Source: an uncultured Gemmatimonadales bacterium | GTDB taxonomy: Bacteria; Gemmatimonadota; Glassbacteria; GWA2-58-10 | DNA: 57,339 nucleotides | Direction of reading: 5' to 3' | Assembly (NCBI GenBank): GCA_964386505.1 | Contig: CAYLSM010000001.1 | Coordinates: forward strand, 1 to 57,339 | Part shown: positions 9,688-49,260 of the stretch, one piece after another | Position numbering within the stretch: the first letter of the stretch is position 1 | Layout: each line of letters begins with the position of its first letter | Made by a program: the position numbers and the translations under genes | The notes under the pieces: generated by a model | What the model was told of the DNA's origin: nothing | The model's input: the letters and a program-made list of their open reading frames with translations, nothing else | The model's database searches: none

Positions 9688-9884
9688 GGCAGGGCCTCTT
9701 GGAATGACTTGACTGGATGGATTTTATATTTCCGAACGGGCAAGCCGGCGGCATGCTGGAGCAGGTAAGGCGTGTCCGCCGCAGGGATGGGATTAAGATA
9801 CTTGGCCTCAGGCCGCTGTCAAGCCGTAACATGAAAGACGCGATAATACAGAAAGGCTTGTCGTAACAGCTATACTCTTGCGGC

Positions 9885-9935
9885 TGTCAGGCCGCCGCAG
9901 TTCTGCCTTTGGGGGCCGCGCCTGTCTGAGCCTGC
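9885..9935. repeat. Truncated copy (51-nt box only) of the intergenic repeat family also seen at 47517-47778 and 28811-29049
   Basis: tgtcaggccgccgcagttctgcctttgggggccgcgcctgtctgagcctgc aligns with 47517-47565 (tgtcaggccgccgtagtcgtctttgggggacgcgcctgtccgagcctgc). It lies just 3' of the stop of the 9964-11016 gene. Confidence 0.7.
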
Positions 9936-9963
9936 ACTACTGGCAGACGGTGCATATGCTATC

Positions 9964-11016
9964 TCAAAACCCTTCCTCCTGCCTCAGGATACGCGCCGCC
10001 TCCACCAGGGCCAGGTAGCCCTCCGTGGGTACGTACTCCGGGATCGAGTTGCCCGAGCCCAAAGCCCAGCCGTGCGCGCTGGCCCGGAACCGGCGCCCGT
10101 CCTCCACCGCCCGGCGCGTGATCTCCCCGGGCTTCTCGCGGCACAGAAGGTCCATGTCGATCCCGCCGAACAGACCGATCCTCTGGCTGTAGCGCCCGAT
10201 CCACTCGTCGAACGGCGCGATCACGTCCTCGTTCGAGTGCTTGGCGTCGATCCCCGCGGCGATCATGTCCTCCATCACCTCGAAAATCTTTCCGCAGGAA
10301 TGCCAGAGCATCGGCTTGCCGGCGCCGTGGATCGCCCCGATCAGGCGACGGTACTGCGGGACAACGTGCTGACGGATCACCGCCGGGCTGGAGAGCAGCC
10401 CGCCCTTGAACCCCAGGTCGTCACCGATCCGGCAGACCGCATACAGGTCACCCCAGCGGCGCAGGAACTCGCTCCAGATCGCGAGCATCGTATCGCCGAT
10501 AGCACGGTAGAGCGCGGCGAACGTCTCCGGGTCATCCACCTGGAGGTAGCTGAGCTGCTCGAACCCCACCAGGTCCTCGCTCAGCTCGTACACGCCGTAG
10601 CCCACTCCGCCCACGGCCCGCATCCCCTCCGGCAGGGCTTTGCCCAGAGCGCGGAACTGGCTGTCGTAGGCTTTCCAGAACAGCTCCGGAAGCTCGGCCC
10701 AGGGGTAGCGCTCGAAATCGGCCCGGCACTGGATCGGCCCGGGCCTGCCGCCGTAGATCGCGCCGTGGCCGGGCAGTATCTCGGCGATCCCGGCCTCGAA
10801 CGAGACCGTATCGTAGGTCATCTCGCGGAAAAAACGGCAGTAGCAGTCGAAAAAGTGCTCCTGGTCGACAGTTTCGCCCTCCAGTTCCCGGGCGAAAGAG
10901 AGACCCAGCACCCGCTCCATCACCGGCGGGTTGACTATGTGCTCGTACAGGGGAAGGCGCGCCGGGCGGCGGTTACGGGCCGCCTCGACCAGGTGGGTGT
11001 AGTCGGGTGTGAACAT
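9964..11016 (-). CDS. Uroporphyrinogen-decarboxylase (URO-D) superfamily protein, MtaA/CmuA-like methyltransferase type
   Basis: The N-terminus RPARLPLYEHIVNPPVMERVLG and the core MLWHSCGKIFEVMEDMIAAGIDAKHSNED resemble non-HemE URO-D family members. No corrinoid protein gene is nearby. Confidence 0.6.
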   Translation of the reverse strand: MFTPDYTHLVEAARNRRPARLPLYEHIVNPPVMERVLGLSFARELEGETVDQEHFFDCYCRFFREMTYDTVSFEAGIAEILPGHGAIYGGRPGPIQCRADFERYPWAELPELFWKAYDSQFRALGKALPEGMRAVGGVGYGVYELSEDLVGFEQLSYLQVDDPETFAALYRAIGDTMLAIWSEFLRRWGDLYAVCRIGDDLGFKGGLLSSPAVIRQHVVPQYRRLIGAIHGAGKPMLWHSCGKIFEVMEDMIAAGIDAKHSNEDVIAPFDEWIGRYSQRIGLFGGIDMDLLCREKPGEITRRAVEDGRRFRASAHGWALGSGNSIPEYVPTEGYLALVEAARILRQEEGF

Positions 11017-37432: not shown

Positions 37433-37670
37433 CTGTTCACCTCGCCGTTAACTTATACCGTTGTTCAACCGGAGCTGGTCGTTCGTTCATTGTTTAATAC
37501 AGCAGGAACTATGCCAGTGTTTCAAAAATACGTGTCAAATATTTATTCTGGTTTTTATTTCTTCCAAAGATTGATAGAAAAATGTGACCAGCGGAGTAAC
37601 ACCCGGCCCAGCCTCACGGCCGACCATCTCTGACATCGCCGGAGGTGCCCTGAGCCAGCGCTTCGCGGGC

Positions 37671-37738: not shown

Positions 37739-40700
37739 TCAAAGCGAGTGAGACACACCGGCCTCCAGGCTTGACGCCACCGACTCCAGGAACCGGTCAG
37801 GCTGCGCGGCCATGAACCCCAGCGCAACATTGATCTGGGCGAAGGCTTTCTGCTTCGACTGCGGCTGGATCACTATCGAGACCGGGTCCAGGCTCAGCAC
37901 CTCTTTCTGGCCGCTCACGCTCTCCAGGGCCCGGCAGACCGGATTCAGCCGCACCCGCGCCTGGCGCGAGAAATCCAGCTTGCACAGGCCGTCCGAGATG
38001 TACACGCTCGCCAGGCCCAGGCGGGCGGCGAAAATGCGCAGGCGCATCTTCTCCAGCAGACTGCGCACCTCCTCGGGCAGCGCGCCGAAACGGTCCTCCA
38101 ATTCACGGGCCACCTCATCCAGCAGGCCCGGGTCCTCGCTGGAGGCGATCTTGCGGTAGAGGGCCAGTTTCTGTTTCTGGTCCGGCACGTACTCGTCCGG
38201 CAGGTAGGCCGGCAGGTCCAAGTTCACCTTGACCGACATCGCCTCCACCCGCTGGCCGCTGTTCTCCAGCTTGGCGATCGCGTCCTTGAGCAGCTTGAGG
38301 TATGTGTCGAACCCCACGGCGGTGATGAACCCGTGCTGCTGGCTGCCCAGGAGATTGCCGGTGCCGCGCATCTCCAGGTCGCGCAGGGCGATCTCGTAGC
38401 CGCTGCCCAGCTCGGTGTACTCCTCCAGCACGCGCAGGCGCTTGACCGCGTCATCGGTCAGCATACGCTGGGGCGGCACCAGAAGGTAGGCGTAGGCGCG
38501 GTGGAAACTCCGGCCCACCCGTCCGCGCAACTGGTAGAGCTGGGCCAGCCCGAAACAGTCGGCGCGGTTGACGATGATCGTGTTGGCGTTGGGGAAATCC
38601 AGCCCGTTCTCGATGATCATGGTCGAGAGAAGCACGTTCACCTCGCGGCGCTGGAAACGGCGCATGCTGCTCTCCAGCTCGCGCTCCGGCATCTGGCCGT
38701 GGGCAACCCCGATCCGGCACTCCGGCACCACGCGGTGCAGGAACTCGTGCATGGCGAAGATCGAACCGACCCGGTTGTGCACGAAAAACACCTGCCCGTC
38801 GCGGGCCAGCTCGCGGCGGATCGCCTCGGCGATCACCTCCTCGTCGAACCCGCAGACCCGGGTGTGGATGGGCAAACGGTCCTGGGGCGGAGTGGTGATC
38901 AGAGACAGGTCGCGTATGCCCATCAGGCTCATGTGCAGGGTGCGCGGGATGGGCGTGGCGGTCATGGTCAGGGTGTCCACCTCGTTGCGGATCTTTTTCA
39001 GCCGCTCCTTGTGCTTGACCCCGAAACGCTGCTCCTCGTCGATCACAAGCAGGCCCAGGTCGCTGAACTTGACATCCTGGCTGAGCAGGCGATGGGTGCC
39101 GATAAGGATATCCACCTCTCCCTTGCCCAGGCGCTTGACGATGTCTTTCTGTTCCTTTGGCCCCTTGAAACGGCTGAGGGTCTCCACCTGCACCGGAAAA
39201 TCGGCCAGACGCTCGCTGAACGTGATGTAGTGCTGCTGGGCCAGGACCGTGGTCGGAACCAGCACCGCCACCTGCTTGCCGTCCTGCACCGCTTTGAACG
39301 CCGCGCGCAGAGCGACTTCAGTCTTGCCGAAACCCACGTCGCCGCAGAGCAGACGGTCCATGCAGGCCTTCTTCTGCATATCCGTCTTGATTTCCTCGAT
39401 CGCCCGGAGCTGGTCGGGTGTTTCCTCGTAGACGAACGAGCGCTCCAGGTCGCGCTGCCAGTCGGTGTCCGGGCTGAACTCGAACCCGCCGCGCACCTTG
39501 CGCGTGGCGTAGACCTGTATCAACTCCTCGGTCATGTCCTGTATTGCCTTTACCGTGCGCGCCTTGACCCGCAGCCACTGCGTGCCGCCGATCTTGTGCA
39601 CAGTGGGCGGCTGGCCGTCTTCGGAGCTGTAGCGCTCCACCAGGCCAAGCTGGTCCATCGGCACGTACAGGAAATCGCCGTCCGCATACTCCAGCCACAG
39701 GCATTCCACCGTGGCGTTCTCGGTCGTGATCTTTTTCAGCCCGCGGAACTTGCCGATCCCGTAGTCGATATGCACCACGAAATCACCGGGCCGCAGGCTG
39801 GAGAAATTCTCGAGCGAGGGGGCGCGCTTGTAGTTGCGGCGGCCGCGCACGTGACGGAAACGGCGGAATATTTCGTGGTCAGTGTAGAGGACCAGCTCGC
39901 AGTCCGGATAGCTGAAACCGGTCTCCAGGCTGCCCAGGGCCAGAACGGCCAGCTCGGCGCTCTCGCCCAGCAGTTCCTCCAGACGCTCGAGCTGTCCGGA
40001 GGTGTCGCAGAGCAGCCAGTTCTGGCGCCCCCGCTCGTGCTCACGGCGAAGGTGGCCGCGCAGGCTGTCCAGGTTGCGGTCCACGGCCGGGGCCTCGCGC
40101 GTGTCGAACCGGATCGCCTCGCCCGGGCCCTCTTTCACGTGCAGGCTGCACAGGTCGGCGCGGCGGAACTGCTCCAGACGCGCACCCAACTCCTGCGGCG
40201 ACAGGTACAGCTCCTCCGGGGCGCGGAACAGGGCTCCCCGGCGCTCCACCGCCCGCTCGTGCAGCTCGTGCACCTCCTCCCAGAACTTCTCCGCCTCTTC
40301 CTGCACCTTGTCCCGCTCGTCGAACAGCACCAGGCTTCCCGGGGCCAGGTAGTCGAACAGATCGCCCAGGCGCGCGGAGCCAGCCTGGCCGCCGTTGCGC
40401 TTCCAGTCGAACGGCTCGGCCACGGGCAGAAGGCGCACGCGCTCCAGTTTCTCCACCGAGCGCTGGCTGGCGATCTCGAAACAGCGCAGGTCGGCCAGCT
40501 CATCCCCGAACAGCTCCAGACGCACCGGGTTTTCCATCTCGAAGCCGTAGATGTCCAGGATGCCGCCGCGCACGCTGAACGTGCCCACCTCCTCCACCAT
40601 GGCCTCGCGCTTGAACCCCAGCTCCACCAGACCGGCCAGAAGGCTCTCCAGATCCACGCTCTGACCCAGGCGCAGCGTAATCTCGCGGCTGTTGAAATCC

Positions 40701-41119
40701 CCCGGCGCCACCACGCGCTGGCAGAGCGCGCGCACCGGGATCACGGTCACTCCCGGGGTCAGGTGCATGAGCCGCGAGAGGGCCTCGATCCGAGGCCCCA
40801 CTATCCCCGGCTCCGGGCGCGAATCCTCGTAGGGCAGAACCTCCCACTGCGGGAACACGTTCACCTGTTCCTCTGGCAGGAAATTGAGCAGGTCCGCCTC
40901 GATTTTCTCCACCTGGCGCGCGCCGCGGGTCACGTAGAGCGTGGTCCCGGGACGGCGCGTTTGCAGCCCTGCGGCCACAAAGTTGCGGGCCGAGCCGTAC
41001 AGGTTGCCAAGACGCGCCTCGGCCGCAGTCTCATCCCCGCGGCCGTACAGGTGCTCCAGCGCTTTGGCAAACGCGCGCGAGCTGTCCAGCCGCTCCAGCA
41101 AGCTTTTCAGGTCCGCCAT
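37739..41119 (-). CDS. mfd: Transcription-repair coupling factor
   Basis: The 1126-aa protein has superfamily-2 helicase motifs LLCGDVGFGKTEV and LVIDEEQRFGV. The CarD-like block GDFVVHIDYGIGKF and the TRG region are present. Confidence 0.95.
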   Translation of the reverse strand: MADLKSLLERLDSSRAFAKALEHLYGRGDETAAEARLGNLYGSARNFVAAGLQTRRPGTTLYVTRGARQVEKIEADLLNFLPEEQVNVFPQWEVLPYEDSRPEPGIVGPRIEALSRLMHLTPGVTVIPVRALCQRVVAPGDFNSREITLRLGQSVDLESLLAGLVELGFKREAMVEEVGTFSVRGGILDIYGFEMENPVRLELFGDELADLRCFEIASQRSVEKLERVRLLPVAEPFDWKRNGGQAGSARLGDLFDYLAPGSLVLFDERDKVQEEAEKFWEEVHELHERAVERRGALFRAPEELYLSPQELGARLEQFRRADLCSLHVKEGPGEAIRFDTREAPAVDRNLDSLRGHLRREHERGRQNWLLCDTSGQLERLEELLGESAELAVLALGSLETGFSYPDCELVLYTDHEIFRRFRHVRGRRNYKRAPSLENFSSLRPGDFVVHIDYGIGKFRGLKKITTENATVECLWLEYADGDFLYVPMDQLGLVERYSSEDGQPPTVHKIGGTQWLRVKARTVKAIQDMTEELIQVYATRKVRGGFEFSPDTDWQRDLERSFVYEETPDQLRAIEEIKTDMQKKACMDRLLCGDVGFGKTEVALRAAFKAVQDGKQVAVLVPTTVLAQQHYITFSERLADFPVQVETLSRFKGPKEQKDIVKRLGKGEVDILIGTHRLLSQDVKFSDLGLLVIDEEQRFGVKHKERLKKIRNEVDTLTMTATPIPRTLHMSLMGIRDLSLITTPPQDRLPIHTRVCGFDEEVIAEAIRRELARDGQVFFVHNRVGSIFAMHEFLHRVVPECRIGVAHGQMPERELESSMRRFQRREVNVLLSTMIIENGLDFPNANTIIVNRADCFGLAQLYQLRGRVGRSFHRAYAYLLVPPQRMLTDDAVKRLRVLEEYTELGSGYEIALRDLEMRGTGNLLGSQQHGFITAVGFDTYLKLLKDAIAKLENSGQRVEAMSVKVNLDLPAYLPDEYVPDQKQKLALYRKIASSEDPGLLDEVARELEDRFGALPEEVRSLLEKMRLRIFAARLGLASVYISDGLCKLDFSRQARVRLNPVCRALESVSGQKEVLSLDPVSIVIQPQSKQKAFAQINVALGFMAAQPDRFLESVASSLEAGVSHSL

Positions 41120-43779: not shown

Positions 43780-45084
43780 TCAGCCAGCCAGGCCGGGCGG
43801 CACTGGGTAGACCTCGCCCGCGGCCTCCAGCTCGGCCTTCTTCTCATCGGTCAAGCCGATCTCCTCATCGCTCAGGTAGCAGGCCGGGTCCGGCCCGAAC
43901 GGGTCGTCGTAGACCCGCGCGGCCCGCACGCGCATCGCCCCGCCGCAGAGCGCGAAGTAGCGGCACAGACGGCAGCGCCCGCGGATACGCCCGGCCCGGT
44001 CTTTCAGCCCGGCCATCAGGGGGTCGGAGGTGTCGGTCCAGATCTCGGAGAATTTGCGCTCGCGCACGTTGCCGAACGTGTGGTCCATCCAGAACTGGTC
44101 CGGGTGGACATTGCCGAACCAGTCCACCTCGCCGATCCCCACGCCGGTGGAGAACATCCCGCCGCGGTTCCACTCCAGCAGCTTGCGCACGGCCTCGGCG
44201 CGCGGGCTGCCCTCGGCCTCCAGGCGCCGCAGCACGTAGATCCCGTCCACGTGGTTGTCCACGGTCAGGATGTTGACATTGAGGCCCCGAGAGTGGAAAT
44301 CGCGCGTGCGGCGCATGATTATCTCCATGGCGTCCCGGCTCTGGCTGTGCGACAGGTCGCTCTCGGCGATCCCGGCCCCGCGTCCCGAGTAGACCAGGTG
44401 GTAGAAACAGGCCCGGTTGATCCGCTCACGCTCGATGAAATCGAAAATGGCTTCCAGATCGTTGTAGTTGCTGCGGGTGAGGGTCAGGCGAAGGCCAACG
44501 CGCTGGCCCAGCTCCACCAGGTTTCGGAACCCCCGCATGGCCAGGTCGAAAGCGCCTTTCATGCCCCGGAAACAGTCGTTCACATCTCCGATCCCGTCCA
44601 GGCTGATTCCTACATAGGTAAACCCGGCCTCTTTCACTTTCCGGGCCGTTTTCTCGTCGATCAGGGTGCCGTTGGTCGAGAGCGTGGGACGAAGGCCTTG
44701 GTCCACGGCAAAGCGCACCAGCTCGAAAATGTCCCGCCGCACCAGCGGCTCGCCGCCCGAGAACAGCACGGCCGGAACCTTGAACCCGGCCAGGTCGGTC
44801 AGGAAAGCCTTGGCTTCCTCGGTGCTCAGCTCGCCCGAGTAGCGCTTGTTCTCACTGTCCGTGTAGCAGTGCACGCAGCGCAGGTTGCAGCGGCGCGTGC
44901 AGTTGAACACTACAACCGGACGGCGCTCGGCGGCGCTGGCCGGGGCGGTCTGCGGAACGCTGTGCTGCACCGCCGCCGCCGATCCATGCGGAGGCGGGCA
45001 GGACGGTGCAGCGGCGGCATGACCGTAGCGGATCGCGTCCCCGCTCGACTGCTCCCCGCACAACAGTTTCGTTATGTCTATCAT
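43780..45084 (-). CDS. Radical SAM/SPASM protein of the NirJ/AhbC/AhbD (heme-type tetrapyrrole maturation) subfamily
   Basis: The ATG at 45084 follows GGAGAG. The N-terminal LLCGEQSSGDAIRYG is followed by NCTRRCNLRCVHCY (CxxxCxxC). The C-terminal Cys-rich segment CRLCRYFALCGG is SPASM-like. The subfamily call is tentative. Confidence 0.75.
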   Translation of the reverse strand: MIDITKLLCGEQSSGDAIRYGHAAAAPSCPPPHGSAAAVQHSVPQTAPASAAERRPVVVFNCTRRCNLRCVHCYTDSENKRYSGELSTEEAKAFLTDLAGFKVPAVLFSGGEPLVRRDIFELVRFAVDQGLRPTLSTNGTLIDEKTARKVKEAGFTYVGISLDGIGDVNDCFRGMKGAFDLAMRGFRNLVELGQRVGLRLTLTRSNYNDLEAIFDFIERERINRACFYHLVYSGRGAGIAESDLSHSQSRDAMEIIMRRTRDFHSRGLNVNILTVDNHVDGIYVLRRLEAEGSPRAEAVRKLLEWNRGGMFSTGVGIGEVDWFGNVHPDQFWMDHTFGNVRERKFSEIWTDTSDPLMAGLKDRAGRIRGRCRLCRYFALCGGAMRVRAARVYDDPFGPDPACYLSDEEIGLTDEKKAELEAAGEVYPVPPGLAG

Positions 45085-45326
45085 CCGCTCTCCGCTGGAT
45101 TGAGGGCTTGACCGGAACGTCTCGTCATGTTGAAACGGCGGCCGGTCGGGAGATGTTGCGGCAAGACTTGCACTCGGTTGCAACGAATTGCTTCCGAAGC
45201 CCTCAGGCTATAGATTATACAAGAAGATATAGTCATGCATCAGGTCAATTTAGTCCCGGGCCGACAGCCTGTCAATCCAGGCCGCCGTCCGGCCGTGATT
45301 CAGCGAGAGCGGGGAGAACGTCAAGC

Positions 45327-45743
45327 ATGGAGAAAGTCAAGCGCTTCGGGATATCCATCGAATCCGACCTGGCGGACCGTTTCGACCACCATATCCTGGC
45401 CGAGGGCTACTCGAACCGCAGCGAGGCCCTGCGCGACCTGATGCGCGAGCACCTGGTGGCCGACCAGTGGAACCTGGACGGGACCGTGACCGTGGCCTCG
45501 CTCAGCCTGGTCTACAACCATCACCAGCGCGACCTGGGTGACACCCTGACCGATATCCAGCACGACCACCACGAGATAATCATATCCTCACTCCACGTCC
45601 ATATCGATCACGACAACTGCCTCGAGGTAATCATCCTCAAAGGCCCCAACACCGAGATCAAAAGCCTGTCCGACCGCCTTATGGCCACAAGGGGAGTCAA
45701 GCACGCGAAGCTGACCATGACTACCACCGGACGAGATATCTGA
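45327..45743 (+). CDS. nikR: Nickel-responsive transcriptional regulator NikR
   Basis: The ribbon-helix-helix N-terminus reads KRFGISIESDLADRFDHHILAEGYSNRSEALRDLMREHL. The C-terminal metal-site region is rich in His and Cys (HHQRD...IQHDHHEII...HVHIDHDNCLEV). Confidence 0.88.
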   Translation: MEKVKRFGISIESDLADRFDHHILAEGYSNRSEALRDLMREHLVADQWNLDGTVTVASLSLVYNHHQRDLGDTLTDIQHDHHEIIISSLHVHIDHDNCLEVIILKGPNTEIKSLSDRLMATRGVKHAKLTMTTTGRDI

Positions 45744-45803
45744 AAAGCGTGGCTCCACCCCGGACGGCATCCGCCACCTTCAGCATGGAAGGAGGAACGT
45801 CCA

Positions 45804-46109
45804 ATGATCAGCCGAATCTGGCACGGCTGGACCACCAACGCCAATGCGGACAAGTATGAGGCTCTGCTGAAAGAGGAAATCTTCGTCGGCATCCGTAACC
45901 GTCACATCTCCGGCTTCCGTGAAATCCGTCTCCTTCGCCGCAATCTGGCCGAGGAGACCGAGTTCGTCACGATCATGACTTTCGACTCCCTGTCCGCGGT
46001 GCGTGATTTCGCCGGTCGTGACTACGAAGCCGCCGTTGTCCCGAAAAGCGCGCGGCAGGTTCTTACCCGTTTCGATCAGCGTTCACAGCATTACGAGATA
46101 GTTGTCTGA
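45804..46109 (+). CDS. ABM-like (dimeric alpha/beta-barrel) small protein
   Basis: The 101-aa protein has a strong SD (GGAAGGAGG). The pattern WTTNANADKYEALL...FVTIMTFDSLSAVRDFAG resembles antibiotic-biosynthesis-monooxygenase-type domains. Confidence 0.5.
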   Translation: MISRIWHGWTTNANADKYEALLKEEIFVGIRNRHISGFREIRLLRRNLAEETEFVTIMTFDSLSAVRDFAGRDYEAAVVPKSARQVLTRFDQRSQHYEIVV

Positions 46110-46140
46110 GCCTCACTCCGACGCCGATCGCCTTTGATTA

Positions 46141-46180
46141 AAAAAGCCCGGACCCGGTACGATACCGGGTCCGGGCTTTG
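46141..46180. terminator. Bidirectional intrinsic terminator (serves the ABM-like gene and mini-ORF A)
   Basis: GCCCGGACCCGGTA (46146-46159) pairs with TACCGGGTCCGGGC (46163-46176). AAAAA lies upstream and TTT lies downstream. Confidence 0.8.
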
Positions 46181-46201
46181 ACATTCCTCTGCGAACACGC
46201 C

Positions 46202-46315
46202 TTAAAGCCCCAGCAGCCCGACCAGCAGAACCAGAGCCATGAAATAGGTCAGCATGCTTACCAGCACCCGGGCGAAAAACCCGGCCTTCTCGAACACACT
46301 CTCTTTGAAAAACAT
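46202..46315 (-). CDS. Mini-ORF A: 37-aa single-TM peptide (MFFKESVFEKAGFFARVLVSMLTYFMALVLLVGLLGL)
   Basis: Hand-translated and absent from the ORF track. The ATG lies 6 nt after GAGGAG. It has one hydrophobic span and its own terminator, and it shares the Y-F core with B, C and D. Confidence 0.55.
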   Translation of the reverse strand: MFFKESVFEKAGFFARVLVSMLTYFMALVLLVGLLGL

Positions 46316-46453
46316 CTCTCTCTCCTCGTTAAGTGCAACGCTCGCGTTTCCAATATGCAAGCCGGATACCCCGGCTGAACTCAGCCCTTAAACAGCGAGG
46401 CCGGCCGCCCTTCCCGGGCTGCCGGCCTCGCTCTGTCCGTTGATCGCTTTCTG

Positions 46454-46561
46454 TCAGAGCCCGGTCAGCGGACTCAGCAGAAAACTCAGCAGGAAGAAGT
46501 AAGACAGGTACAGCCCGAGAAACCTGGCGGAAGTCATCAGATAATCGATACGTTCAGTCAT
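46454..46561 (-). CDS. Mini-ORF B: 35-aa single-TM peptide (MTERIDYLMTSARFLGLYLSYFFLLSFLLSPLTGL)
   Basis: Hand-translated. The ATG lies 7 nt after GGGGGG. It is followed by the stem-loop CAGCGAGGCCGGC/GCCGGCCTCGCT (46393-46435). Confidence 0.55.
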   Translation of the reverse strand: MTERIDYLMTSARFLGLYLSYFFLLSFLLSPLTGL

Positions 46562-46739
46562 CTTTACACCCCCCGTGATTAAAAACTCTCGTCCCTAATC
46601 GGCATCGCCGCTCCGGCCCTCTTTTATTGCTTCTCATTATCAATCTCCACATACGACTGTCCTTTCCTTTTCCGTTCCATCCGACCCGCCCCCTGCGGAT
46701 CGATACTGTTAAAACACCATTGTTTACTTTTTGTTCCAT
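46554..46739 (-). CDS. Possible 61-aa basic leader ORF whose stop overlaps the start of mini-ORF B (ATGACTGA)
   Basis: The sequence is MEQKVNNGVLTVSIRRGRVGWNGKGKDSRMWRLIMRSNKRGPERRCRLGTRVFNHGGCKDD. The frame stays open in a comparatively AT-rich stretch, but there is no clear SD and no recognisable family. Confidence 0.2.
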   Translation of the reverse strand: MEQKVNNGVLTVSIRRGRVGWNGKGKDSRMWRLIMRSNKRGPERRCRLGTRVFNHGGCKDD

Positions 46740-46848
46740 TTTTCTTGCAAAAAAAACAGACCCCGACTTCAGATATTTTCTGGACGCCGGGAGGCCGCAC
46801 CCGCTTGTTTCGGCTGCGGCCCCACAGGCGTCCCTCGTATTTTTTCTC

Positions 46849-46986
46849 TCATATCAGCTTTCCGCCAGAGACCGAGAGCATCACCCAGGCGAAATCGATC
46901 ATCGCAAAATACAGCGCCGCCGAGATTGCGGCTCCGGCCCAGGCGTAAGAGGGGCCGTCATTCTTATCACTGCGGATGGTTTTCAT
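46849..46986 (-). CDS. Mini-ORF C: 45-aa single-TM peptide (MKTIRSDKNDGPSYAWAGAAISAALYFAMIDFAWVMLSVSGGKLI)
   Basis: Hand-translated. The ATG lies 5 nt after GGGAG. Downstream lie the stem GCCGCACCCG/CGGCTGCGGC (46794-46820) and a T8 run (46748-46757 on the minus strand). Confidence 0.55.
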   Translation of the reverse strand: MKTIRSDKNDGPSYAWAGAAISAALYFAMIDFAWVMLSVSGGKLI

Positions 46987-47134
46987 TTTTTCTCCCTCGA
47001 TGGAATTGAGTGAATCGAAGCTTGACTATCCAGGGAGAAAAGCGCTTTTCTCGACTTTCATTTACTATGACCATTCAACCGGCCGCCAGGTTTCACAAAT
47101 CTTGCCTGCCCGACTCGGCTGCAAGTTTCAGGGC

Positions 47135-47170
47135 AATAAAAAGCCGGCGGGGATTTCTCCCCGCCGGCTG
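47135..47170 (-). terminator. Strong intrinsic terminator after mini-ORF D
   Basis: On the minus strand, GCCGGCGGGGA-gaaa-TCCCCGCCGGC is followed by TTTTTATTG. Confidence 0.85.
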
Positions 47171-47192
47171 CGTTCCGCCTCTTTCCCGGCGC

Positions 47193-47315
47193 TTAGATCA
47201 GGCTGTTCAGGCCCAGGCTGAGCGCGGCGAAAGCAAAGTAGACTATCGTGCCCAGGAAGGCCTGGAGGTACACGGTCACTGTGCTGTTGTCAGCGGACTG
47301 AGTCATGGCTTTCAT
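47193..47315 (-). CDS. Mini-ORF D: 40-aa single-TM peptide (MKAMTQSADNSTVTVYLQAFLGTIVYFAFAALSLGLNSLI)
   Basis: Hand-translated. The ATG lies 6 nt after GGGAG. It is followed by the strong terminator at 47135-47170. Confidence 0.6.
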   Translation of the reverse strand: MKAMTQSADNSTVTVYLQAFLGTIVYFAFAALSLGLNSLI

Positions 47316-47516
47316 CGTTGTCTCCCTTTAGGAGTTTGGGTTTCGGCATCAGTGTGAGGCTTTTCGAAAACCGGTTTCTGTGCCCTTCACACTATATGAC
47401 TCACCCATTGCCCGCAGGGTTTCATTTTTTGGGGGAAAATGAAGCTTTACGGGCGAACATAAAGTCTTCCCCTCTGCAACACCGCCTCGCATCGCGGGAA
47501 AAAACCTTCCTGCGGG

Positions 47517-47778
47517 TGTCAGGCCGCCGTAGTCGTCTTTGGGGGACGCGCCTGTCCGAGCCTGCTCCACGGGTAGCGTGAAAATGCTCCGTAGACACCG
47601 ATGGTCACAAATCGGTCGCTGTGCGGCGCGCATTCAGCGTCAGCGTCGCCCCGCACCGCAACAGCGGAATCGCGGCGACTGACACACCGCTGGCAGAAAT
47701 AGCGCCGTGTCCCGGACGAGTTCGCGGCCCCCACGTCCTTTGGTCCTCTCGGGCAAGACCGAAAGGACATAAAACACG
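47517..47778. repeat. Full-length copy (~262 nt) of the intergenic repeat family; possible structured RNA
   Basis: The 49-nt box at 47517-47565 matches 9885-9935. Its internal blocks are shared with 28811-29049. The terminal hairpin GTCCTTTGGTC/GACCGAAAGGAC (47745-47778) occupies the position held by GTTCTCTTGG/CCAAGAGAAC in the other copy. Confidence 0.7.
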
Positions 47779-47876
47779 ATTTTAGAGCTTGATCAGAACA
47801 CGCCACATTTTGGGAATACTTGAGCCAAGTGCAGCATCACATTCAATTTTTACGGCAGGAATTACAGGAGGGAAAA

Positions 47877-48656
47877 TCAGGACTGACTGTCCGTAGCGGC
47901 AAAGCCCATGAAAGCCCACATCCGGCCCAGGCCGGCCTCGGCCTCGGCGCGGAAGGAATGGAAAAGGTCGTTGTGGCAGCGCGTGCACCAGCGGCTGATC
48001 GCGATGCCGGATGCGGGCACACCCATTTCCTGCGCCCGGTGCGCCAGGAGCGAACGCAGGTCGATCCGCCAGCCGCCGCTTTCAGTCCGTCCGGCGAACC
48101 CCGGGCTTTCCGGCCCATTAACACCCAGCCAGACCGCCACCTCGCGCCCCACCTCGTAGCAGGCGCCGCAGATTGCCGGACCGAGGTAGATTTCGAGTTC
48201 CTGCGCCGCGGCCCCGGTCAGCGCGGCCAGACGGGCCACGCCCTCCTGGAGCACTCCGGCCGCCACTCCGCGCCAGCCCGCGTGCAAAAGCGCCCAGGCC
48301 CGCGCCCGGCGGGCCAGCACGAACACAGGCACGCAGTCCGCGGCCGAGACCACCGCTGCCAGCCCCGGCGACGCCCCCACCAACCCGTCCCCCTCCAGCA
48401 CGTGCTCCAGCGAGAAAGACTCGTCCATGGCGCCCTCGAGCAGGCTCACGTTCACCACCCGCTGCCCGTGCACCTGCGCCAGGCGGAATGCATCGCGGAA
48501 ACCCCGCGCTGCCAGCTCTGCGCCCAGAAACGGCAGGCCCTCGCCGCGACCGCGCTCAGGCAGGCGCAGGCTCACCCCGTGCACCAGTCCAGGCACCCCG
48601 GCCCAGGGGTTGTAACGCACATAAAAAAACTGTCCCTCGGCCCGCAGAGTCTCCAT
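47877..48656 (-). CDS. pgeF: Peptidoglycan editing factor PgeF (YfiH/DUF152, laccase-domain protein)
   Basis: Family blocks are QVHGQRVV, ADCVPVFVL, HAGWRGVAAGVL, GPAICGACYEVG and CTRCHNDLFHSFR. Confidence 0.85.
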   Translation of the reverse strand: METLRAEGQFFYVRYNPWAGVPGLVHGVSLRLPERGRGEGLPFLGAELAARGFRDAFRLAQVHGQRVVNVSLLEGAMDESFSLEHVLEGDGLVGASPGLAAVVSAADCVPVFVLARRARAWALLHAGWRGVAAGVLQEGVARLAALTGAAAQELEIYLGPAICGACYEVGREVAVWLGVNGPESPGFAGRTESGGWRIDLRSLLAHRAQEMGVPASGIAISRWCTRCHNDLFHSFRAEAEAGLGRMWAFMGFAATDSQS

Positions 48657-48738
48657 CCGGCCCGCCGTTTAATGTTTATCTTTTTGTGACCCGTCCGCGT
48701 CCCGGCCCTGACAGACGGAGGCGGACAGAACGGTGGCT

Positions 48739-49260
48739 TCAGTCCAGAAACAGGTAGCGCCGCCACTTGTTCTCGCCCGCCGGGTGGTGGAAACGGATAA
48801 ACGAGAAATAGCTGGGACGGCGCGGCTGGCGCAGAAGGTGCATGCCCGCCATCTCGGGCGTGCGGTTACCCTTGTGGTTATTGCATTTCACGCAGGCGGT
48901 GACCAGGTTCTCCCAACTGTCCTCACCCTGGCGCGCCCGCGGGACGATGTGATCGGTGGTAAGTGGTTCGTGGGTGGAGCCGCAGTACTGGCAACGGTAC
49001 CCGTCCCGCCGCAACAGGTTGCGCCGGTTGAGAGAAATCGTCCGGCGACCGGGCTGTACGTAGATCATAAGCCTGATAACGGAAGGAATGGGGTACTGAC
49101 GGCTCACCGAGCGGACAACAATGTGGTCGTAATACTCCAAAATCTCGGCCTTGCCCAGCATCGCCAGAATGATCGCCCGGCGCGCCGAGCAGATATGCAC
49201 CGGCTGGAAACTGTTGTTCAGCACCAGCACCTGGCTGCTCAGAGTGTCACCTGGGTCCAT
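48739..49260 (-). CDS. HNH endonuclease family protein
   Basis: CQYCGSTHEPLTTDHIVPRARQGEDSWENLVTACVKCNNHKGNR carries the HNH motif with a zinc-finger CxxC pair. Confidence 0.85.
   Translation of the reverse strand: MDPGDTLSSQVLVLNNSFQPVHICSARRAIILAMLGKAEILEYYDHIVVRSVSRQYPIPSVIRLMIYVQPGRRTISLNRRNLLRRDGYRCQYCGSTHEPLTTDHIVPRARQGEDSWENLVTACVKCNNHKGNRTPEMAGMHLLRQPRRPSYFSFIRFHHPAGENKWRRYLFLD

Follow-up and report, generated by a model that had tools for sequence, protein, structure and literature searches.

We analysed 57,339 nucleotides (nt) of DNA from an uncultured Gemmatimonadales bacterium (assembly GCA_964386505.1, contig CAYLSM010000001.1, positions 1 to 57,339 of the forward strand; hereafter the window), in which four short minus-strand open reading frames (ORFs), A to D, form a tandem array between pgeF and nikR. 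The explanation that we favour, with middling confidence, is that the array encodes lineage-specific small membrane proteins induced by envelope stress and is not a classical pair of toxin and antisense RNA. The genes represent new families within a known kind of gene, and public gene callers had already predicted them as anonymous hypothetical proteins. In the order of their transcription the four genes are as follows.

47193-47315, minus strand: gene D, 40 amino acids (aa), single transmembrane (TM) helix, the most widely conserved of the types
46849-46986, minus strand: gene C, 45 aa, single TM helix with a conserved intramembrane Asp, paralogue of D
46454-46561, minus strand: gene B, 35 aa, single TM helix, conserved Pro near the C-terminus
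46202-46315, minus strand: gene A, 37 aa, single TM helix with an LTYF core

A first-pass annotation, made by a model from the sequence alone, had proposed these ORFs, and its coordinates, strand and translations were all borne out. Its Shine-Dalgarno (SD) sites were likewise found, with GGAG, GGGAG or G6 lying 5-7 nt ahead of the ATG in all four ORFs. Each peptide has a short polar N-terminus followed by a single predicted TM helix with Tyr-Phe at mid-helix, and the one hydrophobic span claimed for each was seen as a best 19-residue window with a mean Kyte-Doolittle value of 1.7-2.6. The C-terminal flanks are GL, TGL, SVSGGKLI and LSLGLNSLI, with a net charge of 0 to +1. The peptides are not cationic. 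The G+C content of the proposed frames was 0.67-0.80 at third codon positions (GC3) and 0.26-0.50 at second positions (GC2), a pattern that matches the neighbouring real genes. The array lies in a low-G+C island as had been described (0.48-0.58 compared with 0.64 for the entire window), and its spacers measured 138, 287 and 206 nt, in approximate agreement with the 140-290 nt given before.

Conservation of the reading frames in relatives

The genes flanking the array were those that the first-pass annotation had guessed (nikR, the ABM-like gene and pgeF), followed by a radical SAM/SPASM gene.

47877-48656, minus strand: pgeF
45804-46109, plus strand: ABM-like gene, convergent with the array
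45330-45743, plus strand: nikR, convergent with the array
43780-45183, minus strand: radical SAM/SPASM gene

Relatives were collected by a PgeF scan of one genome per species, and further contigs were then retrieved through PgeF homologues. PgeF relatives in the one-genome-per-species scan came from Gemmatimonadota metagenome-assembled genomes (MAGs) only, the closest being L001. The following loci carried the mini-ORFs, with PgeF identity given relative to the window.

L087: PgeF 89% identical, all four mini-ORFs
L001: PgeF 68% identical, all four mini-ORFs
L093: a close relative of L001, all four mini-ORFs
L088: PgeF 60% identical, all four mini-ORFs
L002 (Ca. Glassbacteria MAG): PgeF 51% identical, two mini-ORFs
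L091/L092: PgeF 45% identical, three mini-ORFs, one each of the D, B and A types

The four ORFs of L001 lie downstream of pgeF in the same order, on the same strand and with the same lengths as in the window, with nikR and the radical SAM gene next, and order and lengths are also kept in L087 and L093. In L088 the order is the same, with D at 41 aa and A at about 39 aa. The three ORFs of L091/L092 sit between pgeF and the nikR and radical SAM genes as they do in the window. Recurrence in tandem among relatives, which had been proposed as a check on the array, was found in four lineages with all four ORFs and in L091/L092 with three, while L002 has two.

Comparison of the window with L001 in the proposed frames gave ratios of nonsynonymous to synonymous substitution rates (dN/dS) of 0.33 for D, 0.33 for C, 0.27 for B and 0.28 for A. 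The pooled proportion of synonymous differences (pS) was 0.59 against a nonsynonymous proportion (pN) of 0.29, while in the alternative frames pS (0.35 and 0.27) was not above pN (0.37 and 0.40). There were zero indels within the four ORFs in this comparison; the spacers were indel-rich, both here and in a four-lineage alignment. None of the 20 ORFs in the five lineages with four ORFs contains a stop, and the frameshifts and stops named beforehand as grounds for rejecting the array were thus not seen. Judged by this conservation, A to D are genuine coding genes under purifying selection, because their frames are kept in relatives beyond chance.

It is scarcely credible that the ORFs are fortuitous and that the functional products are small RNAs (sRNAs) made from stress promoters. 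Transcripts are predicted to be short (about 250-320 nt), their promoters, leaders and terminators are conserved, and the most conserved sequences of the array are non-coding, all of which would suit such sRNAs. The frame-specific purifying selection largely refutes this explanation, as do the lack of stops in the 20 ORFs, the lack of indels against L001, the conservation of SD and ATG and the excess of GC3 over GC2.

Three peptide types share a Tyr-Phe core

The first-pass annotation had described the four peptides as paralogues, and this held for one pair. Using profiles built from four to seven orthologues per type, hhalign gave a probability of 80% (E 1.4e-5) for D and C, 12% for D and A, 8% for B and A and less than 2% for the remaining pairs, so that all pairs involving A or B stayed at or below 12%. 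Pairwise Smith-Waterman alignment of the window peptides showed no excess over composition-preserving shuffles (best pair A-B, p 0.047), and leave-one-family-out hidden Markov models (HMMs) did not retrieve the omitted type from about 15,500 six-frame fragments. An HMM built from two Glassbacteria peptides placed 7/8 of the window and L001 peptides within its top nine matches.

The aromatic core that had been noted in all four peptides was confirmed, in that YF is the sole dipeptide common to the four window peptides. Shuffling with composition preserved produced a common YF in 0.08% of cases and a common aromatic pair of any kind in 0.28%, the comparison being post hoc. YF is kept in the orthologues of every type, the single exception being D of L088, which has YL, and in A, B and D its distance from the C-terminus is much the same, 12-13 residues. 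Our reading of these alignments is that A to D probably fall into three old types with one architecture and one functional motif in common: D/C, which was duplicated in the window clade, then B, and lastly A. The three types may descend from one ancestor.

Searches for the four peptides in Pfam, NCBIfam, PADLOC, PHROGs and PDB gave no significant match, in keeping with the earlier statement that they resemble no named family. Pfam at E<=1 and NCBIfam at E<=10 returned nothing except one chance match of 12.5 bits, PADLOC and PHROGs returned nothing significant, and the best match of the four type-specific profiles in PDB was a human T-cell receptor TM segment (E 0.23). Rfam had no match at 45000-49000 at E<=1, nor across the window at gathering score.

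The array is confined to a small clade and keeps its place

The profile of the D type matched 7 clusters among 5.8 billion proteins, and among 1.84 billion representatives it recovered 5 true members together with two false positives, both long and repetitive. The peptides concatenated into one profile found nothing in the 5.8 billion proteins, a result that is uninformative since the exact peptides are in the collection. A peptide-pattern scan of JGI metagenome contigs added one further contig, a near-copy of L001. Samples in which the array occurs include JGI 3300022663 and 3300022666 and SRR6476075/76. The pooled four-type HMM added no member from 78 further Gemmatimonadota pgeF loci or from the rest of the window, and tblastn against plasmids and phages gave no match. 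On these searches the family occurs only in a small clade of uncultured Gemmatimonadota that is Glassbacteria-like and rarely sampled; the MAG of one member is labelled Ca. Glassbacteria, a name that occurs in papers on Gemmatimonadota lineages. The lack of plasmid and phage copies, the lack of DNA repeats between the units and synteny down to 45% PgeF identity argue, as far as such comparisons go, against a mobile or selfish element. By the same comparisons the array is inherited vertically, in a fixed place between pgeF and nikR, within this small clade.

The position of the array near a radical SAM/SPASM gene raised the question of exported peptides, either a multi-peptide leaderless bacteriocin or precursors of ribosomally synthesized and post-translationally modified peptides (RiPPs) acted on by that enzyme. 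Several small tandem genes do lie about 1 kb from such a gene here, and the adjacency is conserved, which would suit such a system. The radical SAM protein was typed as a tetrapyrrole enzyme of the NirJ1 (528 bits) or AhbC (484 bits) kind, the best maturase model being mycofactocin at 140, and RiPP precursors were rejected at this point. The convergent nikR intervenes between the two, the radical SAM gene has its own divergent promoter region, and no transporter or immunity genes are found nearby. The peptides themselves lack Cys, a leader/core layout and cationic character, and exported peptides of either kind are very improbable.

ECF-type promoter motifs precede D, C and B

Three motifs resembling promoters of extracytoplasmic function (ECF) sigma factors lie ahead of the genes.

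47395-47424, minus strand: D promoter motif of ECF-sigma type, TGAAACC-N18-TCATA, with a GAAAC-N18-GTC core at 47398-47423
47066-47095, minus strand: C promoter motif of ECF-sigma type, TGAAACC-N18-TCATA, with a GAAAC-N18-GTC core at 47069-47094
46710-46738, minus strand: B promoter motif of ECF-sigma type, GGAAC-N17-GTT at 46713-46737

The D and C motifs share the consensus TGAAACC-N16-RGTCWTA with an A/T tract ahead of it, and the same sequence precedes the single D-type gene of L002 and L091. The D motif was present in seven lineages (the window, L087, L001, L093, L088, L091 and L002) and stood 69-93 nt ahead of the ATG in six of them, the C motif stood 78-84 nt ahead in five lineages, and the B motif, as GGAAC-N16/17-GTT, stood 146-153 nt ahead in five lineages. 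A relaxed form, TGRAAC-N19-TNWTA, was expected 0.04 times in the window and observed 3 times, 2 of them before D and C. Among 94 loci the strict motif occurred before D-type and C-type genes only, and the extended motif was absent from the 78 other Gemmatimonadota loci. Other sites in the window with the ECF core all fall inside long ORFs and are probably due to chance. No conserved promoter motif of its own was found for gene A in the six-lineage comparison. The third relaxed match, at 37495-37524 on the minus strand, reads TGGCATAGTTCCTGCT; it fits a sigma54 -24/-12 element (GG-N10-GC) and lies in the spacer downstream of a 1126-aa ORF at 37739-41119.

The -35 element of E. coli sigmaE is GGAAC and its -10 element GTC, and the consensus of corynebacterial and mycobacterial SigE/SigH is GGAAC-N18-19-GTT (PMC10012870); the form GGAACTT is also published (PMC3326320). 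The D, C and B motifs fit these published elements, which were defined in E. coli and in corynebacteria and mycobacteria, and are candidate ECF promoters, all three combining a -35 of GGAAC or GAAAC with a -10 of GTC or GTT at a distance of 16-19 nt. Likeness to the sigmaE, sigmaW and SigE-SigH regulons thus covers the -35 and -10 sequences and their spacing, and extends to the upstream A/T-rich tract and to membrane proteins as target genes. Compared with E. coli sigmaE, the spacing before GTC in the D and C motifs is one base longer.

Other assignments of the motif were considered. Sigma70 and sigma32 were ruled out by the 20-22 nt spacing, and sigma54 was ruled out for D, C and B as GG-N10-GC is missing. 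The E. coli NikR operator is GTATGA-N16-TCATAC, and a NikR operator was rejected as the primary reading of TGAAAC...TCATA on account of the spacing misfit and of the orientation of nikR, which is convergent with the array and not divergent from it. At 9400-9692 of L002 a B-type mini-gene lies about 2 kb from the D-type one with two unrelated genes between them, and this B-type gene has a canonical TTGACA-N17-TAATAT promoter in place of the GGAAC-type motif. This shows that GAAAC does not simply mark housekeeping promoters in this lineage.

The C leader has the layout of a putative translational switch

The leaders of C and D contain sequences that could pair with the ribosome-binding sites.

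47033-47055, minus strand: invariant block of the C leader, GTCGAGAAAAGCGCTTTTCTCCC, made up of an SD mimic, GAGAAAAG, followed by an anti-SD, CUUUUCUCCC
46987-47001, minus strand: SD region of C, AUCGAGGGAGAAAAA, which pairs with the anti-SD (inverted repeat I6)
47316-47394, minus strand: D leader, with a small CUCC/GGAG hairpin over the SD at 47322-47335

The 23-nt block GTCGAGAAAAGCGCTTTTCTCCC is identical in five lineages, while DNA identity across the C ORF is only 64%. The 3' half of the block, CUUUUCUCCC, matches the SD region GGGAGAAAA (46988-46996) by complementarity. The 5' half, GAGAAAAG, mimics the SD region and offers the anti-SD an alternative partner, with which it can form a 7-bp hairpin close to the predicted 5' end. 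Block and SD are separated by 25-31 nt that are free to differ between lineages in both sequence and length. In 5/5 lineages the fold that sequesters the SD was the minimum-free-energy structure, 2.3-5.6 kcal/mol better than the 5'-hairpin alternative. Folding z-scores of whole leaders were -1.4 to +1.4 and not significant; it is solely the specific C-leader pairing that is conserved. These features give the C leader the layout of a candidate translational switch. The D-leader hairpin is weak (4-5 bp); its anti-SD CUCC and its SD are kept in four lineages and the loops vary.

These regulatory sequences bear on a second explanation, in which the peptides are constitutive accessory subunits of one membrane complex, similar to CydX, KdpF or PetG/N, and are encoded apart from the large subunits. 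The three types are conserved jointly and in order under purifying selection with an invariant mid-helix YF, an Asp in C and a Pro in B, and a YF at similar depth would fit a common binding surface. In size, in the single TM helix and in the conserved aromatics within it the peptides resemble CydX, KdpF, PetG/PetN and CcoQ. They differ from them in that the genes lie away from any membrane-complex genes, in that the promoter motifs are of a stress type and not of a housekeeping type, in that C has a putative translational off-switch and in that no similarity to small subunits was found in PDB (best E 0.23). We regard a subunit role as decidedly unlikely.

Terminators and transcription units

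A stem-loop after each gene, two of them strong intrinsic terminators, had been described before, and hairpins were found after each of A to D, the strong terminators being those after D and after A.

47138-47169, minus strand: intrinsic terminator of D, 12-bp stem followed by T5
46782-46834, minus strand: hairpin after C, GC-rich, without an adjacent U-tract in the window
46394-46432, minus strand: hairpin after B, GC-rich, with a weak U-tract
46140-46179, minus strand: intrinsic terminator of A, 17-bp perfect stem followed by T6, facing the convergent ABM-like gene

The D terminator is kept in the four aligned lineages with a compensatory change of GGGGA/TCCCC to GGAGA/TCTCC, and L093 has a similar hairpin 3' of D. 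At the position of the hairpin after C, L088 carries a canonical terminator. The claim that each gene is a separate transcription unit is supported for D and probably for C and B by their conserved promoters; it is not supported for A, for which no promoter motif was found, and it is weakened by the hairpins after C and B, which lack a proper U-tract in the window. A may be read through from B because the hairpin between them has no such tract.

Comparison with type I toxin-antitoxin loci

The first-pass annotation had likened the array to type I toxin-antitoxin loci, in which each peptide would be a membrane-damaging toxin and its mRNA would be silenced by leader structure together with an as yet unrecognised antisense or trans-acting sRNA. 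Several features agree with this. All four peptides fall within the size and hydrophobicity of type I toxins (<70 aa, predicted TM helix), and they are single-TM hydrophobic peptides clustered in tandem in one intergenic region, with separate putative promoters for D, C and B and separate terminators for D and A. In its stable fold the C leader hides the SD, which is toxin-like though not specific to toxins; SD sequestration is also seen in the tisB, zorO, dinQ and aapA mRNAs. In these respects the array resembles ldr/rdl, ibs/sib, tisB/istR, shoB/ohsC, zorO/orzO, dinQ/agrB and aapA/isoA. It also agrees with a toxin locus that, as Fozo et al. (2010, PMC2887945) note, type I loci on chromosomes may show vertical inheritance together with purifying selection.

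No sign of an antitoxin RNA was found in the sequence comparisons, and the resemblance did not extend to repeats, to the C-termini or to known toxins. No sigma70-like or ECF-like promoter on the antisense strand was common to the six lineages, where one weak sigma70-like match (9 of 12) occurred in L093 only and an ECF-like match in none, and a scan of the window found no antisense promoter or terminator. The conserved non-coding blocks are all accounted for by sense promoters, leaders, SDs and hairpins, and leader complementarity to nearby sequence is limited to chance matches of 12-23 nt. The criteria of Fozo et al. (2010, PMC2887945) include a C-terminal cluster of charged, polar or bulky residues and nucleotide similarity between tandem copies beyond the ORF. 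The TM helix of the array peptides instead reaches the C-terminus, which ends in GL, TGL or NSLI without a charged, bulky or aromatic cluster, and the units are not DNA repeats of each other, direct repeats at 46000-48000 being two-copy and <=22 nt long. The array promoter motifs are ECF-type and neither SOS-type nor constitutive, three distinct peptide types are held in fixed order across deep divergence, and there are no plasmid or phage copies and no similarity to a known toxin family (Pfam, NCBIfam, PADLOC). Taken with the points in its favour, a type I toxin-antitoxin array is unlikely.

A related proposal is that of a stress-triggered membrane-peptide module, in which an ECF sigma factor fires the peptides and the cis-acting switch of mimic, anti-SD and SD, with no antisense RNA, restrains their toxicity or strong membrane activity. 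This is quite improbable in our judgement. If true, it would describe an "antitoxin-less" type I-like system wired into the envelope-stress response.

A proposed role in the envelope-stress response

Under the explanation that we favour, an envelope-stress or other ECF sigma factor would switch the genes on, and the leader would additionally gate translation of C and weakly that of D. Ribosomes would have access to C only as long as the anti-SD is bound up in the 5' hairpin, for example in nascent transcripts or upon binding of a factor. The peptides would then insert into the cytoplasmic membrane and act as modulators of the stress response, either by contacting one or more larger membrane proteins helix to helix or by acting on the bilayer. 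The role that we infer to be most likely is that they modulate a membrane partner or the bilayer during envelope stress.

MgrB, AcrZ, MgtS, MgtR, PmrR and SafA are the closest parallels considered. They are likewise single-pass proteins of 30-50 aa; they are induced by stress or signals and act by contact of TM helices, features that the array peptides may share. They differ in being single genes, compared with an array of three or four here, they have no sequence relationship to the array peptides, and the host lineage of the array is uncultured Gemmatimonadota.

Several points weigh against this explanation. The transcription starts, the sigma factor, translation and localisation are all inferred from sequence, and the membrane partner of the peptides remains hypothetical. 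A test of ten window ORFs revealed no ECF sigma gene, and the ECF core motif has only 8 bases, so that its significance depends on how well it is conserved and on the longer form of the motif. As DNA, the 5' block of the C leader forms a perfect palindrome and could be a protein operator, instead of or alongside an RNA element; as both arms are invariant there is no covariation by which the two could be told apart. Small hydrophobic peptides with SD-sequestering leaders, moreover, have the appearance of type I toxins too.

Annotation systematically under-represents small membrane proteins, and hardly any are known beyond model Proteobacteria and Firmicutes. The array keeps three unrelated-looking types together and in order in a deep uncultured branch of the Gemmatimonadota, with a readable regulatory logic of a putative stress-sigma promoter combined with a translational switch. 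If the ECF link is true, the promoter motif offers a handle for defining the envelope-stress regulon of the lineage, and the C leader would be a compact, testable translational switch of three elements. No long-standing question is opened by the array and its hosts are uncultured, so that its practical impact is moderate.

Neighbouring features of the window

An insertion of about 410 nt (approximately 47431-47841, minus reading) separates the pgeF stop from the D promoter in the window and in the near-identical strains L082-L085; L087, L001 and L088 lack it. A direct repeat of 10 nt borders it on both sides, as AAAAATTGAA at 47842-47851 and as AAAAAATGAA at about 47421-47430. The insertion is GC-rich with a strong fold (-136 kcal/mol for 331 nt) and ends in a small hairpin followed by T6; it contains no convincing ORF and has no Rfam match. 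Possible identities are an sRNA gene and a mobile or repeated element of small size. Within it lies one of two intergenic copies of an element of about 85 nt (9860-9965 and 47490-47575, both minus strand; 82% identity), with the consensus ...GCAGGCTCrGACAGGCGCGnCCCCCAAAG...CGGCGGCCTGACAnCCGCA....

The ABM/Dabb-like gene downstream of nikR (45804-46109, plus strand; 101 aa) has sub-threshold matches in Pfam and none in NCBIfam. It is present only in the window clade and L087 and is absent from L001, L088, L091 and L093.

The divergent pairing of nikR with the NirJ1/AhbC-like radical SAM/SPASM gene (43780-45743 in the window, 6900-8849 in L091 and 4156-7761 in L092) was seen in all lineages examined, as far as 45% PgeF identity, and in L092 a ZnuA-type ABC transporter follows the pair. 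A nickel regulator beside a radical SAM enzyme of the siroheme-pathway type is an unusual pairing in a bacterium.

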